This document shows, in pieces, positions 54,922-64,000 of a stretch of DNA of 64,000 nt; position 1 is the stretch's first letter; the number at the start of each line of letters is the position of its first letter. Made by a program: the position numbers and the translations under genes. Under the pieces are notes generated by a model that saw nothing but the letters and a program-made list of their open reading frames with translations, was not told where the DNA came from and made no database searches. The stretch is taken from positions 358,439-422,438 of the forward strand of contig CAXNGS010000001.1 of NCBI GenBank assembly GCA_964202055.1, read 5' to 3'. This DNA comes from Bdellovibrionota bacterium (GTDB taxonomy: Bacteria; Bdellovibrionota; UBA2428).

Positions 54922-54998
54922 CGCGGGGTGGAGCAGCCTGGTAGCTCGTTGGGCTCATAACCCAAAGGTCAGAGGTTCAAATCCTCTCCCCGCAACCA
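54922..54998 (+). tRNA. Initiator tRNA-fMet(CAT)
   Basis: CGCGGGGTGGAGCAGCCTGGTAGCTCGTTGGGCTCATAACCCAAAGG...CCCCGCAACCA; C1:A72 mismatch and GGG/CCC anticodon stem. Confidence 0.97.
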
Positions 54999-56704
54999 AT
55001 TCTATCAATAAGCGAACCCCCGACCTTTCGGTTAGGAGTTCGCTTTATTCTTTTGTAGTTTTCAATACTTCGATCCTCTTCCACTGCAGAAGCTGGATCT
55101 AAAAGTCTGTTAGATTTCATTTCGCAGCCGGTTTCCGAGCTTTTTTCATCCACTCGATAGTGCAGTTCCAGTCCGTTGTAGCTCGCTACGATATTCCTAA
55201 AAACACTTCGTATAAGTCTACGTTGAATGTGAGGCGTAGCTTTTTTCCACCCACGTTGGAACTCATCGGTGTTTTTCTGGATGCGAGAAACAGCTTCCTC
55301 AACGGTTGTCTGATCCTCGATGGTCAGCTCAATTTCATTCAGACGCCCTTGGCTATGTTTTTTCTGTTCCGCGAGTGTCTTGATCTTGTCCCTGAAAACA
55401 TAATCCACGGTCGCATCGTTCATCGAAAGTTGGAGTTCAATAACCTTCTTTGTTTCCATCTCGATGTTCGATAGCCGTCCACGCAATGCGGTCTTCTCGG
55501 TCAGATGATCGCGGTGGCTTTGCCCAAGAATGACTTCATACCTGGCTTCAATACCGTCCATGTATCCTTCTCTGTGGAGCGTTTCATTCAAGTGCTTTAC
55601 TATCGCATCCTCAACGTCGTCGGCCCTGATCCAATCAATCGGGCAAGTAATTTCCTGTCCCTTGAGCTTGCGGTGGCGATAATAGCGATGCACTTTGACT
55701 TTGCCATGAGCGGCGGATCCCATAAGCGGACCTCCGCAGGACTTACAGCGTAGAATCCCCGACAAAAGAAACACTCGGGTTTCCTTGTTTGCAAGGCGAG
55801 TCCGCTCCTGTTCCAGTGCAAGATCAAGATTCCTCTGTGCCGCTGTCCAGACCTCTTGTTCAACAATGGCAGGCCATGATGCCTTAACGACTTGGTAACG
55901 CTCAAAGAGGCGGAGTGTCTCCGGGTCTTTATTCTTACTCTTGCGGTTGATATCTCTAAGTCCCGCATAGGCCGGGTTACGCAGGACCAGAAGCACAGCA
56001 TTGCGTGTCCACTTGCCCTCGTTCCTTAGGCTGAAGTTTCTCTCGGGACGAGCCCTGGGAGTGATATGCTCACGGTTCAGTCTGTCGGCAGCTTTCGCAC
56101 AAGTTCCTTCTTCTAGGAAAATCCGAAAAACATCTCTTACTCGTACAGCCTCTTCTTCATTGACCTTGAACGTTGCTTTGTTGGACTTATCAATATCAAA
56201 GCCCAGGATAACGTGTCCCCCATTGCGGAGCCCCCGAAGGGCTCGCGCATGGAAGTTCATCGAGACACGTTCTGATGTCTGTTTGCGCTCGAATTGCGCA
56301 AGGTTAATCATGTTGAAGACCATCATTTCGCCTGCGGCGGTCGTCGTGTCGAATTGCTCTTTGATCGAAAGGAACTTTGCGCTCGCCTTTTTCAGGTCTT
56401 CTAGCAGGATGCAGAAATCGAGAATGTTACGCGAAAGACGCGCAAGATCAGTCACCAAAATGAGGTTGATCTTACCTTTTCGTATATCGCGCATCATTCG
56501 CTGAAATTCAGGGCGCTTGGTGTCCTTCGCAGAAATTCCGTCATCAACGTAAGTTTCGACAACCTTTCCCCACGCGGGGTCTTGGACGTTCTTGATGTCT
56601 ACAAAGGACATCAATCGGTGTTTTTGGTTGTCGAGCGACCCTTCGTGGCGGGCCGCTTGCTCGTCGGTGCTGACTCTCAGGTAGAGGCCTATCTTATGCC
56701 GCAT
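54977..56704 (-). CDS. Large serine recombinase (resolvase + recombinase + Zn-ribbon/coiled coil)
   Basis: YLRVSTDEQ catalytic Ser, DDGISAK..KRP, DLARLSR, AQFER..TSER, LRNPAYAG, LSGILRCKSCG. Confidence 0.95.
   Translation of the reverse strand: MRHKIGLYLRVSTDEQAARHEGSLDNQKHRLMSFVDIKNVQDPAWGKVVETYVDDGISAKDTKRPEFQRMMRDIRKGKINLILVTDLARLSRNILDFCILLEDLKKASAKFLSIKEQFDTTTAAGEMMVFNMINLAQFERKQTSERVSMNFHARALRGLRNGGHVILGFDIDKSNKATFKVNEEEAVRVRDVFRIFLEEGTCAKAADRLNREHITPRARPERNFSLRNEGKWTRNAVLLVLRNPAYAGLRDINRKSKNKDPETLRLFERYQVVKASWPAIVEQEVWTAAQRNLDLALEQERTRLANKETRVFLLSGILRCKSCGGPLMGSAAHGKVKVHRYYRHRKLKGQEITCPIDWIRADDVEDAIVKHLNETLHREGYMDGIEARYEVILGQSHRDHLTEKTALRGRLSNIEMETKKVIELQLSMNDATVDYVFRDKIKTLAEQKKHSQGRLNEIELTIEDQTTVEEAVSRIQKNTDEFQRGWKKATPHIQRRLIRSVFRNIVASYNGLELHYRVDEKSSETGCEMKSNRLLDPASAVEEDRSIENYKRIKRTPNRKVGGSLIDRIGCGERI
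55010..55054 (+). terminator. Probable intrinsic terminator for tRNA-fMet, inside the recombinase 3' end
   Basis: Stem aagcgaac...gttcgctt with inner gacc-tttc-ggtt, followed by tattctttt. Confidence 0.5.
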
Positions 56705-56900
56705 TTTTTAGCTCCTCCTCAGATTCGCTTTTCTTTGGGCGTCCTCGTTTGTGGGCGCTGACAAATAGCACCGCAAGGAGGGACTTGATTTCTTGTTTTC
56801 TCAGTTCGTAGCTCACCTGGTCTTCTGGTGCAGGAATCAATTGGACGCGCGGCCAGTTAGCAGGAAGACGGCGTACCGCCTTCTTGAGCTTTCGTGCCAT
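56694..56900 (-). CDS. Small basic protein overlapping the recombinase start (candidate directionality factor)
   Basis: 68 aa, GGAG SD sequence, KRGRPKK motif; function inferred from position only. Confidence 0.55.
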   Translation of the reverse strand: MARKLKKAVRRLPANWPRVQLIPAPEDQVSYELRKQEIKSLLAVLFVSAHKRGRPKKSESEEELKNAA

Positions 56901-56925
56901 TTTCACGCTCCATTTTTGGATAAAC

Positions 56926-57150
56926 TTAAACAACATCGTAGTTCCTCAAGCGTTCGATAAACTCCGTAGCTTTTTTTGCCGGAAGATCATCAAGAAATCG
57001 GAGAAGCCGAATTGCTAGTTTGTTAGGACGGCGCACTCCATTCTCGATATTCATGATGCTCCCATAGCCGGAGAGCCCCAGAAGATCCGCAAACTCCACG
57101 GGCGAAAGTCCGAGTTTTTCTCGGATGCGGCGGACCTCATCGGGGTTCAC
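56926..57150 (-). CDS. XRE-family HTH regulator
   Basis: VRRIREKLGLSPVEFADLLG...IMNIENGVRRP. Confidence 0.88.
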   Translation of the reverse strand: MNPDEVRRIREKLGLSPVEFADLLGLSGYGSIMNIENGVRRPNKLAIRLLRFLDDLPAKKATEFIERLRNYDVV

Positions 57151-57153
57151 TTA

Positions 57154-62413: not shown

Positions 62414-63003
62414 AGTCCCTCCTCTCGCTCCTTTGTGATATAGATTCCCCACGGATTCTCAGGAGTTCTTTCTCCGTATTCAAAATTAAGGCCAAGCCTT
62501 AAGACTCCTGCCGCGAGCACTCCTTGAATGGAAGTCACGCGGTCCCCAGAAATTTCGACCGTTTTCCTTGAAAGGTCGATCTTGAGCTGATCGGGATAGA
62601 GCCTTTGCGATACGCCTTTGTCGGTCGAGAATTTCGCAACTGATCCAGTCGCATTGCGAAACACTTTTTGTGAAGACGACGCAATGAAACTCTCGGCTTT
62701 CTGAAGCTGCATAGCTACGGACTTGGAATCCCACCAGTAACGCAGCTTCAAATAGCGCCTGACCGCCTCCTCAATCTGGACTTCCGCTTTTGGGAGTTCT
62801 GTCATTTGAAGAACCCGGCTCTGGGAATCTGTTACGACGACGATAGGCTCTTTTCCCAAGAGCGAGGCCAGACTCAGAACAAGAATCAAAAGGAGGGCAA
62901 GAAGGCCTAAGCTAAATACTTTCAAAAATTGCACGGAATGAGAAAGCTTCCCCACTAGCGCTGGCAGTGCGGAGACTTTCATGCTGAGTTTATTTGGAGT
63001 CAT
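62410..63003 (-). CDS. VirB8/TrbF-like protein
   Basis: Single TM helix, NTF2-like body, RTPENPWGIYIT motif. Confidence 0.7.
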   Translation of the reverse strand: MTPNKLSMKVSALPALVGKLSHSVQFLKVFSLGLLALLLILVLSLASLLGKEPIVVVTDSQSRVLQMTELPKAEVQIEEAVRRYLKLRYWWDSKSVAMQLQKAESFIASSSQKVFRNATGSVAKFSTDKGVSQRLYPDQLKIDLSRKTVEISGDRVTSIQGVLAAGVLRLGLNFEYGERTPENPWGIYITKEREEGL

Positions 63004-63893
63004 AGATGTCCTTTCTCGTAAGCAGAACGAGTGTCTTTCGGGAAAATTCGCGCATAGCTCTTCTGGGAAAAGTTCTTGCTGGCATTTAGGCTTTCTCTAG
63101 TAATTCGGCTCACCGTTGCGACCCTCGTTGGAGTACCTGTCATCGCGCTAACGGCCGCCGCACCGATAAGAGGCGCAACCGAATTGAGCCCCGATCCAAC
63201 AAGAGAGCTTACGACAAGAGGCGTTGCGAGCATCGCGACCGCGATCACGAAGTTCATCACCATCAAGGTTACGTAACCGCCTTCAATCTGATAGGCGTCG
63301 CCAAAGGAGAGGGCCGTGAGCATCGCCCCTAAGATCGCCCATACGATTTTCCAGCAAGCAACCTCGATCATTCCCTTAAACAGATTGACCGTAATTTTGC
63401 TCGTTGCTGGAAACAGATTGAACAAAAGCAGGATCGGCGCCGCTATCGAGTAGAAAACCCAAAAGAAGTGATACATCGAAAAGGTAATGGAGCGGGCAAA
63501 ATAGAGAATCAGGTAGCTCAAGAAGGAAAGCGTCGCAATGATAAGGTCGTTGAACTGAATCAGAACGCTGGTAACGGAGAGCGAATAAGTTTCGGACTTT
63601 TCTTTTGCCATTCTTATAAACGCATCGATGCCTGAAAGTTTGTCGATCCGTTCAGTTATTCCATCAGCTAGAAAGAGGATACATCGAGTGATTTCAGGAA
63701 ATGCCACTAAGAGCAGAGTCGAGATGATCGCTCGCTTCAATATATCCAGAAACTCAGGACTTCCCTGCGGAGAGCGAAACCACGCTAGGGCTACAGCAAG
63801 CGCAAAAAAGACCGGTAATAGAAGATAGTAGAGCTCGGTGAAATCCCTATGGAGATCACGCATAAGCCCACCTAGAAGCTCAAGGTTTTGCAC
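63000..63893 (-). CDS. VirB6/TrbL-like polytopic membrane protein
   Basis: About 6 TM segments, Ala/Gly-rich C-terminus, position in the transfer operon. Confidence 0.65.
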   Translation of the reverse strand: MQNLELLGGLMRDLHRDFTELYYLLLPVFFALAVALAWFRSPQGSPEFLDILKRAIISTLLLVAFPEITRCILFLADGITERIDKLSGIDAFIRMAKEKSETYSLSVTSVLIQFNDLIIATLSFLSYLILYFARSITFSMYHFFWVFYSIAAPILLLFNLFPATSKITVNLFKGMIEVACWKIVWAILGAMLTALSFGDAYQIEGGYVTLMVMNFVIAVAMLATPLVVSSLVGSGLNSVAPLIGAAAVSAMTGTPTRVATVSRITRESLNASKNFSQKSYARIFPKDTRSAYEKGHL

Positions 63894-63902
63894 GGCGCCC
63901 TC

Positions 63903-63998
63903 CTAGTCTTTGAGAGAAGGAAGCGTTGATTCACGCTCCTTGGGAAGAGAATCAAATGCGTTCGACAGTCCTTCGTATTGCGCTTTGAACTGAGAACT
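63903..63998 (-). CDS. 3' end of the next transfer-operon gene (truncated by the window)
   Basis: Open frame SSQFKAQYEGLSNAFDSLPKERESTLPSLKD* ending 9 nt before the VirB6-like start. Confidence 0.5.
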   Translation of the reverse strand, partial: SSQFKAQYEGLSNAFDSLPKERESTLPSLKD

Positions 63999-64000
63999 GG

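Follow-up and report, generated by a model that had tools for sequence, protein, structure and literature searches.

A putative integrative and conjugative element of Bdellovibrionota with a serine integrase gene that appears to be shortened by insertion at a tRNA-fMet gene

The window analysed here is a stretch of 64,000 nucleotides from a Bdellovibrionota genome of 1.69 Mb and 74% completeness (C1:358439-422438, C1 being contig CAXNGS010000001.1). Near one end of it we found a gene for tRNA-fMet and, abutting it, the minus-strand conjugation module of an element that extends beyond the window and carries an integrase gene which appears to lose its 3' part upon insertion. An earlier note on this DNA had described a run of genes from a VirB6-like protein to a serine recombinase ending at tRNA-fMet, and all of these parts were present in that order on the minus strand (Table 1). 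It had also called the element compact, which had to be corrected to a length of 33.8 kb including approximately 19 kb of cargo. The tRNA showed a C1:A72 mismatch and three G-C pairs in the anticodon stem, which mark it as an initiator tRNA, and its terminal bases are predicted to be supplied by the element.

The gene next to the tRNA encodes a large serine recombinase (LSR) with a catalytic serine, a recombinase domain and a zinc ribbon. The catalytic serine S12 was nearly invariant among 46 relatives, and the top NCBIfam match, below cut-off, was the CcrB model. The LSR reading frame enters the tRNA gene, with final codons and a stop that are tRNA sequence read antisense, the stop lying in the T-loop. 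A far end with a duplicated tRNA-fMet 3' end had been expected beyond the window; a far attachment (att) end was indeed found there, but neither blastn nor a mismatch scan detected a long duplication of the tRNA end, and the two ends share a core of 10 bp only. Because a lone 10-bp match is near chance, the case for the far end is carried by the reading frame. From the far core the same frame continues without interruption over 169 codons (C1:447188 to 446679, minus strand), and a stop lies two codons outside the core. The encoded tail has a helix-turn-helix (HTH) domain of repressor or transposase type and a recombinase domain (PF07508, 1.8e-8; SPbeta integrase, 5e-8; A118 integrase, 4e-4), and its predicted structure had a predicted local distance difference test value (pLDDT) of 86. 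Since the LSR frame continues in frame at the far end, the circle would yield a longer enzyme than the inserted copy, and the free circle would encode an LSR of ~740 residues. Judged from the sequence, the att site lies inside the LSR gene. The short form retains the catalytic serine and the recombinase, zinc and coiled-coil regions, which make up a whole standard LSR. A plasmid search with the tail gave weak recombinase-domain matches only, and the alignment of tails was too variable for pattern scans.

Conserved motifs in the arms of the att sites were located in 32 relatives by their distance from the CCA antisense. The motif GAAC was found at +20 in the tRNA arm in 32/32 relatives, this copy being the T-loop, at +25 in the tail arm in 16/32, and inverted at -15 in the LSR arm in 20/32. 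The outer host arm, downstream of the tRNA, had no conserved motif and carried GAAC in 4/32 only, which we take to be tandem junctions (three were inspected). From the symmetry of these arms we infer a crossover centre at acceptor-stem positions 71-72. The host-arm motif sits 5 bp closer to this centre than the element-arm motifs, and only one of the two host arms carries it. A shift of 5 bp in the zinc-domain (ZD) motif between attP and attB has been described for serine integrases (PMC3783163), and the match of the att-arm offsets to this shift would explain why the cores are short and why targets change easily. Near-identical tails were seen at tmRNA in two relatives (L135 in genome G172 and L136 in G200). 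The outer arm of G172 has no copy of the CCA and its match begins three bases further inward, an offset that fits a crossover inside the acceptor stem. In the window itself, a hairpin with a T-rich run behind it lies directly after the tRNA within the LSR coding tail (55010-55045); it may terminate tRNA transcription in place of the displaced terminator.

Table 1. Features of the element, its att sites and its tRNA target. Plain numbers are window positions; C1 denotes the contig; base 1 of L001 corresponds to C1:420439.
Feature	Position	Strand	Basis or remark
LSR, integrated short form, 575 aa	54977-56704	-	Resolvase, Recombinase and Zn-ribbon Pfam matches, all over cut-off
Displaced LSR tail, 169 codons, HTH and second recombinase domain	C1:446679-447188	-	beyond window; in frame across core
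tRNA-side att core GCAACCAATT	54992-55001	+	sequence comparison
Far att core GCAACCAATT, 10 bp	C1:447189-447198		beyond window; 33,759 bp from tRNA core
Predicted crossover dinucleotide CA	54993-54994	+	att geometry
T-loop GTTC, predicted ZD motif of host arm	54975-54978	+	
GAAC motif of element arm, inside LSR coding tail, within hairpin	55014-55017	+	
Strong terminator after far core	~C1:447207-447243		beyond window
tRNA-Met(CAT), host target, intact	54922-54998	+	ARAGORN, Rfam
Basic ORF, 80 aa, overlapping LSR start	56694-56936	-	conserved upstream of close LSRs
XRE-family HTH regulator	56926-57150	-	HTH_3 1.3e-5
Conserved 141-aa orphan	57154-57579	-	sequence comparison
Long hairpin with conserved loop CCCAACGAGTTG, oriT candidate	~57620-57700	.	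beside relaxase
MOBC-like relaxase candidate, winged helix and PD-(D/E)xK domain	57804-58580	-	
Glycine-zipper lipoprotein	58577-59044	-	
VirD4/TraD-type coupling protein	59080-60699	-	TraG-D_C 1.8e-11
VirB10/TrbI-like	60699-61868	-	TrbI 4.7e-13
VirB9-like	61661-62452	-	CagX 2.6e-9
VirB8/TraE-like	62410-63003	-	1.3e-5
VirB6-like membrane protein	63000-63893	-	TrbL 1e-3, under cut-off
VirB5-like gene, 248 aa, 3' end in window	63903-64000	-	by position
VirB4/TraC, 845 aa	L001 2613-5150		beyond window; TIGR02746 273 bits, under cut-off
VirB3-like	L001 5153-5470		beyond window
VirB2 pilin	L001 5480-5770		beyond window; TrbC/VirB2 1.8e-7
145-aa ORF, conserved	L001 5875-6312		beyond window
Sigma region-4 protein	L001 6340-6618		beyond window
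Cargo, ~19 kb	from sigma region-4 gene to displaced LSR tail and far core		beyond window

The tail was found in 71 of 300 genomes of the phylum, 54 of which also had an LSR match. Pairs of LSR and tail were selected by orientation (same contig, same strand, tail upstream of LSR), giving 21 pairs that include the present one and two tandem ones, and 20 of these were scored; a cross-contig pair (L032/L055) was seen by eye and stands outside the scored set. A TGG-anchored core was in frame in 18/20 pairs, mostly at the same offset, and cores of at least 7 bp occurred in 14/20 same-contig pairs as compared to 52/326 cross pairs with different targets. Where the LSR meets the CCA in another register (G113 and G064), the open frame of the tail is shifted to match. 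We also found LSR and tail joined naturally in single frames of 784, 758 and 738 codons, the longest of them inside an integrative and conjugative element (ICE) of this family. The 784- and 758-codon frames have attP-like arms and a second LSR at a tRNA further on, by which we recognise them as tandem junctions. The 738-codon frame (L119 5874-8087, G245) had no GTTC/GAAC arm motifs at its junction and no second LSR within the 20 kb examined, and may be a permanently fused or divergent form. A database search returned four fused LSR-tail proteins, one of them the query's own record. Among the proteins P0158-P0161, tails of 70-75% identity are joined to LSR bodies that differ clearly, which suggests that bodies and tails become reassorted through tandem insertion.

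The ends of the LSR genes read into antisense tRNA or tmRNA in 32/46 relatives, the remainder being mostly fused, broken or at a contig end, and a separate scan found an antisense reading of this kind in 18/21 close metagenome relatives versus 0/77 distant phage LSRs. Targets among the relatives were fMet, Met, Pro, His, Arg, Phe, Gln, Ala, Asn, Leu, Asp, Val, Ser and tmRNA, which amounts to at least ten tRNA types plus tmRNA, with repeats of 6-13 bp.

The 80-aa open reading frame (ORF) that overlaps the LSR start is predicted to encode a recombination directionality factor (RDF). A model of the complex between the LSR and this protein scored 0.61, the best control scoring 0.00, and the mark used for such models was reached by 116/157 solved and 2/215 mismatched pairs. 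Separate runs agreed in at least 80% of contacts, with a partner pLDDT of at least 61. The closest modelled contacts were between LSR residues 512-517 and partner residues 31-36, with others on LSR 356-396 and 471-507, and we read this modelled interface as the zinc-domain/coiled-coil junction. RDFs bind this junction of serine integrases according to a study that also reports false positives (PMC12286644). A predicted RDF coupled to the LSR start, together with a short form that keeps a whole standard LSR including the catalytic serine, speaks against a suicidal integrase, in which the short form would be inactive and excision would need full-length enzyme from a tandem neighbour or from an incoming related circle. 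Such a source of enzyme is conceivable, as the tandem junctions encode full-length chimeras, many relatives are decayed by stops, and the option has been raised for DsiB (McMurdie 2011, PMC3146451) and proposed for archaeal split tyrosine integrases (PMC8371274). On balance we consider a suicidal integrase unlikely.

The tail showed a ratio of nonsynonymous to synonymous changes (pN/pS) of 0.24 in its body and 0.43 in its head (11 pairs), which we read as purifying selection. Across 18 elements the tail tree agreed with that of the accompanying LSR (Mantel r 0.70), an agreement that would reflect co-inheritance only, as kin share history; close LSRs among these 18 elements use different tRNAs. 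Selection of this strength, the descent shared with the LSR and the retention of the frame across the core upon a change of register are hard to reconcile with a dispensable tail, that is, an old duplicated domain carried along while the RDF alone sets direction. Phage LSRs of 470-570 aa do exist without such a tail, and still we hold this explanation to be highly improbable. The HTH of repressor or transposase type could alternatively make the tail a regulator, which would bind element DNA on the circle and so repress or activate transfer genes, or be translated alone as a fragment when the element is inserted. A GTG stands 28 codons into the tail of this copy, and in 21/46 tails a start codon of some kind precedes the end of the first conserved helix, but these start codons are unconserved. 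In 33/46 tails the stretch from the core to the conserved HD motif has no start codon; a start backed by a Shine-Dalgarno-like motif was found in 3/46. The second half of the tail is moreover a recombinase domain like those of the SPbeta and A118 integrases, and a regulatory role appears doubtful to us.

The relaxase candidate had been assigned to MOBC in the earlier note by a PD-x16 signature in place of an HUH motif, and this signature was confirmed. The motif reads PD-x16-ELELSRKSFKRY; D137, E154, E156, K160, R164 and Y165 are each kept in 90% or more of 137 relatives, which share no conserved HUH motif. It fits the MOBC motif, D-x(6-17)-E-x-E-x-x-x-K-x3-R-Y. The structural model (pLDDT 95) matched winged helices in its N-terminal part and restriction-endonuclease folds in its C-terminal part, with the BspD6I small subunit (Z 7.3, root-mean-square deviation 3.5, 125 aligned), SdaI and FokI in the top rows. 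The NCBIfam MobC model NF041423 was matched by 123/137 members at E 0.01 or better. This protein resembles a MOBC relaxase and likely works as one, though it lies below the profile cut-off, membership being judged from motif, fold and a sub-threshold hidden Markov model (HMM) only. A sequence search of the PDB with the relaxase gave nothing under E 0.3, Foldseek gave no match at E 0.001 for either predicted-structure model, and tblastn of plasmids found no relative; the family is distinct, with 1,145 clusters at E 1e-3 or better. The hairpin beside the relaxase gene is a candidate origin of transfer (oriT). Its loop motif was found in 16/26 loci, and two-sided changes occurred in 15/23 hairpin pairs among 14 aligned sequences, from which three near-duplicates had been dropped and to which L021 had been added by eye. 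It fits no Rfam family over threshold. As a lead only, the 141-aa orphan is possibly a ribbon-helix-helix relaxosome accessory protein (Atlas MetJ match 0.84, under the bar of 0.9).

The VirB4 protein and the pilin, predicted by the earlier note to lie beyond the window, were both found there along with VirB3-like and VirB5-like genes, the genes from VirB5-like through sigma region-4 spanning L001 1903-6618. The VirB5-like protein falls in an Atlas cluster with PF07996 on 10% of its members, which serves as a lead. The true start of the VirB10-like protein is probably ~45 codons in, because the alignment with relatives begins at residues 46-51. F-type models give the highest scores for VirB4, VirB8 and the coupling protein, none of them above cut-off. 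The F-specific genes are TraN, H, U, W, F and TrbC. None of the F-specific genes of mating-pair formation type F (MPF-F) was found among the scanned ORFs, 17 of the core and 15 of the cargo, the latter being all but a few small ones. The element has the VirB2-3-4-5-6-8-9-10-D4 order of MPF-T, but no VirB11 or VirB1 was found. By gene content, as judged from HMM scores and plasmid matches, the conjugation system fits neither type. No TIGR02788 (VirB11) match was found in the element and none over cut-off in the 74% complete genome. The best plasmid VirB4, 27% identical, was that of the Myxococcus plasmid pYRE, which is typed as non-mobilizable. A region of pYRE (L145 9711-20130) encodes a coupling protein and a small VirB run resembling the one here, gives a weak relaxase-profile match (E 0.004, small search), and is possibly a distant plasmid form of this conjugation system.

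The lack of VirB11, VirB1 and a clear VirB7, and a relaxase below the HMM cut-offs, could also be expected of an island that is not self-transmissible, with a VirB set that secretes protein or depends on a helper and a PD-(D/E)xK protein that is a plain nuclease. Set against this, the coupling protein, the MobC-like protein and the covarying hairpin stay together beside the LSR across the phylum, and VirB11 is rare outside MPF-T (PMC4027160). We give such an island very little credence. An integrase with att sites at both ends, and VirB4, coupling protein, relaxase and membrane channel genes between them, support an ICE-like element. It belongs to a poorly described family, as the earlier note had proposed: the same gene order recurs in L021, L023, L048 and L120, and no described family with the same integrase-relaxase pairing turned up in the literature searched.

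A single 80.5-kb contig of run X1, possibly the source of this DNA, spans the whole element and shows no circle or empty-site joint. Contigs of runs X2 and X3 carry the flanks at ~100% identity up to the tRNA and resume at ~L002 6986, with no cover just inside either end, a depth of 2-5 and no bridging contig; these two runs were not used as evidence. The syntenic site of the same-genus genome G001 is without such an element. This synteny defines the left end only, as the G001 genes 3' of the tRNA match other contigs, and the GC profile showed no mark at the far end. In G001 we also noticed, 3' of the same tRNA-fMet (L019 10330-10750), short stretches that repeat the tRNA 3' end in direct or inverted orientation and resemble a tRNA-derived repeat or old att scars.

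Taken together, we consider it fairly probable that this is an ICE whose circle-made long integrase inserts it and whose inserted short form, with the 80-aa protein, excises it. On the circle, the LSR frame joined across the core would produce the long integrase of ~740 aa. This enzyme would insert the circle at the tip of the tRNA, with crossover at acceptor-stem positions 71-72, and the element would restore the discriminator and CCA. From the att geometry, the zinc domain would read GTTC, of which the T-loop of any tRNA would provide the host-side copy. The tail, with its HTH and recombinase domain, would most likely add DNA contacts at integration, compensating for the missing host-arm motif. 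Insertion would then remove the tail, so that re-integration would be disfavoured and the direction of recombination partly set, and the 575-aa short form with the 80-aa protein would excise the element. By homology, the MOBC-like relaxase would nick at the hairpin and the coupling protein would hand the strand to a reduced VirB channel without VirB11. The 10-bp cores, the in-frame tail, the stop supplied by the tRNA, the att-arm motifs and the natural fusions can be read directly from the DNA; the activities are inferred.

Several observations weigh against this interpretation. At the far end, approximately a dozen 10-mers from the query region have further copies downstream on C1, and the 10-bp match by itself is near chance. 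In the relatives, which are not independent, nine same-contig pairs of other arrangements were excluded and G241 was dropped from the scored set; 2/20 pairs had no TGG core, two cores were only 3-4 bp long and two pairs were tandem fusions. No fused form was present among 50 complete metagenome LSR frames or 77 phage frames, and a search for longer proteins with the tail of this window, a weak test, gave none either. The complex model may have passed in part because the pair resembles solved integrase-RDF structures. The relaxase scores 29.2 of the 200 bits required by NF041423, PF13814 was matched by 1/137 members at E 0.01 or better, and a Z of ~7 is a common level that shows no function. 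VirB11, VirB1 and VirB7 were not identified in the element. An excised circle, which the earlier note had suggested looking for, was not seen: contigs of the three sequencing runs contained neither a circle junction nor an empty-site junction, though contigs drop rare forms. Nor was the tail supported as the determinant of target specificity; it tracks the tRNA target no better than the LSR body does and is probably not that determinant.

The cargo encodes a two-component system, a solute-binding protein, YcaO, RND/TolC efflux, a P-type ATPase and DsbB/DsbA. Elsewhere in the window, ~26 bases at 31315-31339 (minus strand) match exactly the 3' end of the tmRNA of this genome (C2:368918), and neither a tRNA nor a tmRNA is predicted at this place; this is possibly a displaced att fragment of another island. 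A host cluster with secretin, ATPase, inner-membrane and pseudopilin genes (43858-52113, minus strand), syntenic in G001, resembles type II secretion, the gene identities being judged from motifs.

The closest named relatives were Bdellovibrionota records. A profile built from the 137 relaxase sequences matched 173 of 300 genomes drawn from the phylum. Outside it, weak relaxase matches were seen in one Acidobacteriota and one Solirubrobacterales locus. At least 49 of 100 LSRs (from 103 matches, three C-terminal fragments dropped) had a relaxase at most 7 kb upstream on the same strand, a lower bound since the relaxases compared were the 81 same-genome ones among 150 listed of 474 matches. Many genomes of the phylum have 4-9 relaxase relatives, mostly distant (E 1e-12 to 1e-30), which points to further types of element with this relaxase. 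A decayed copy of the element lies at tRNA-Met in Bdellovibrio bacteriovorus Bd5. The same strain has a second, broken element with the same type of integrase at tRNA-Gln (L041 1795-17317, ~15 kb), with its own displaced tail.

A comparable arrangement is known from Dehalococcoides, in which dsiB always overlaps its att site at ssrA, and the authors speculated that a complete gene is present only in the circular form or next to a neighbour's 3' fragment (McMurdie 2011, PMC3146451). The DsiB islands share a CcrB-like LSR with a 3' end overlapping the att site at a structural RNA gene, and they occur in tandem. They are ssrA-specific, though, and as described carry a six-gene module with DsiA, ParB and Mom and no transfer genes, whereas the element here targets tRNA-fMet, has other neighbours and encodes a relaxase and a type IV secretion system (T4SS), and its family uses many tRNAs and tmRNA. 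The displaced piece here is a two-domain protein of 169 codons, while the published passages on DsiB identify no displaced domain. Archaeal suicidal tyrosine integrases (SSV1, pTN3, pT26-2) likewise have the att site in the gene, tRNA targets and chimeras from related elements. They are split on integration into Int(N) and a catalytic Int(C) (PMC8371274). Here the chemistry is that of serine recombinases, and the split removes an extra tail only, leaving the catalytic domain and the rest of the standard enzyme on the long piece. The Mx8 integrase IntP is reportedly a bacterial phage tyrosine integrase that spans attP and has its C-terminus altered on integration, and to our knowledge it has no second recombinase domain. 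It is alike in being a bacterial integrase with a C-terminus that changes on integration and different in being a phage tyrosine integrase. Mx8 and SSV integrases are both listed as crossing attP (Islander 2014, PMC4383910).

In the known phage large serine integrases, attP lies outside the integrase gene. Those of LI/A118, Bxb1 and SPbeta share with the LSR the domain order, the 5-bp ZD shift (PMC3783163) and an RDF at the zinc-domain/coiled-coil junction (PMC12286644), the last being predicted here. They differ from the LSR here, which has one host arm without a conserved motif, and none of 77 phage relatives ended in a tRNA. MOBC relaxases of the CloDF13 MobC type adjoin their own coupling protein (PMC5704250). 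The relaxase here shares with MOBC (NF041423) this adjacency, the acidic motif with K-x3-RY and the PD-(D/E)xK fold, but lies far under the model cut-off and has no plasmid relative by tblastn. The titles, abstracts and passages of the literature searched gave no account of a displaced two-domain tail or of this ICE family.

Serine integrases were described in 2014 as not known at tRNA genes (Islander, PMC4383910), and a 2021 review holds self-disrupting recombinases to be exclusively archaeal (PMC8371274). The family contradicts both generalisations. Serine integrases at tRNA genes are not wholly new, because a tycheposon preprint lists 27 of 937 tRNA-island elements with an LSR; the word "tRNA" does not occur in the main text of Durrant 2022. 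We tentatively put forward a wider proposal, for which we would claim rather less than an even chance: the family would rewrite its own integrase gene as a direction switch, the long form integrating with one recognisable host arm, the universal T-loop, and the short form excising with its partner. The target would be set mainly by the two crossover bases and a few acceptor-stem bases, so that nearly every tRNA or tmRNA gene could become a target of the enzyme, bodies and tails would be reassorted through tandem insertion, and the family would ride on a minimal MOBC-type conjugation system that is unclassified and common among predatory bacteria.

Serine integrases are tools of genome engineering, and the control of their direction is an active question. 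This family offers a natural and testable alternative, in which the length of the enzyme changes with the state of the element and one host half-site appears dispensable. Repeats of 6-13 bp and a sub-threshold relaxase would make such elements easily missed by standard island and conjugation scanners. With relaxase relatives in over half of the phylum genomes searched, these elements may be a main route of gene transfer in predatory bacteria, and may be a source of genetic tools for them.

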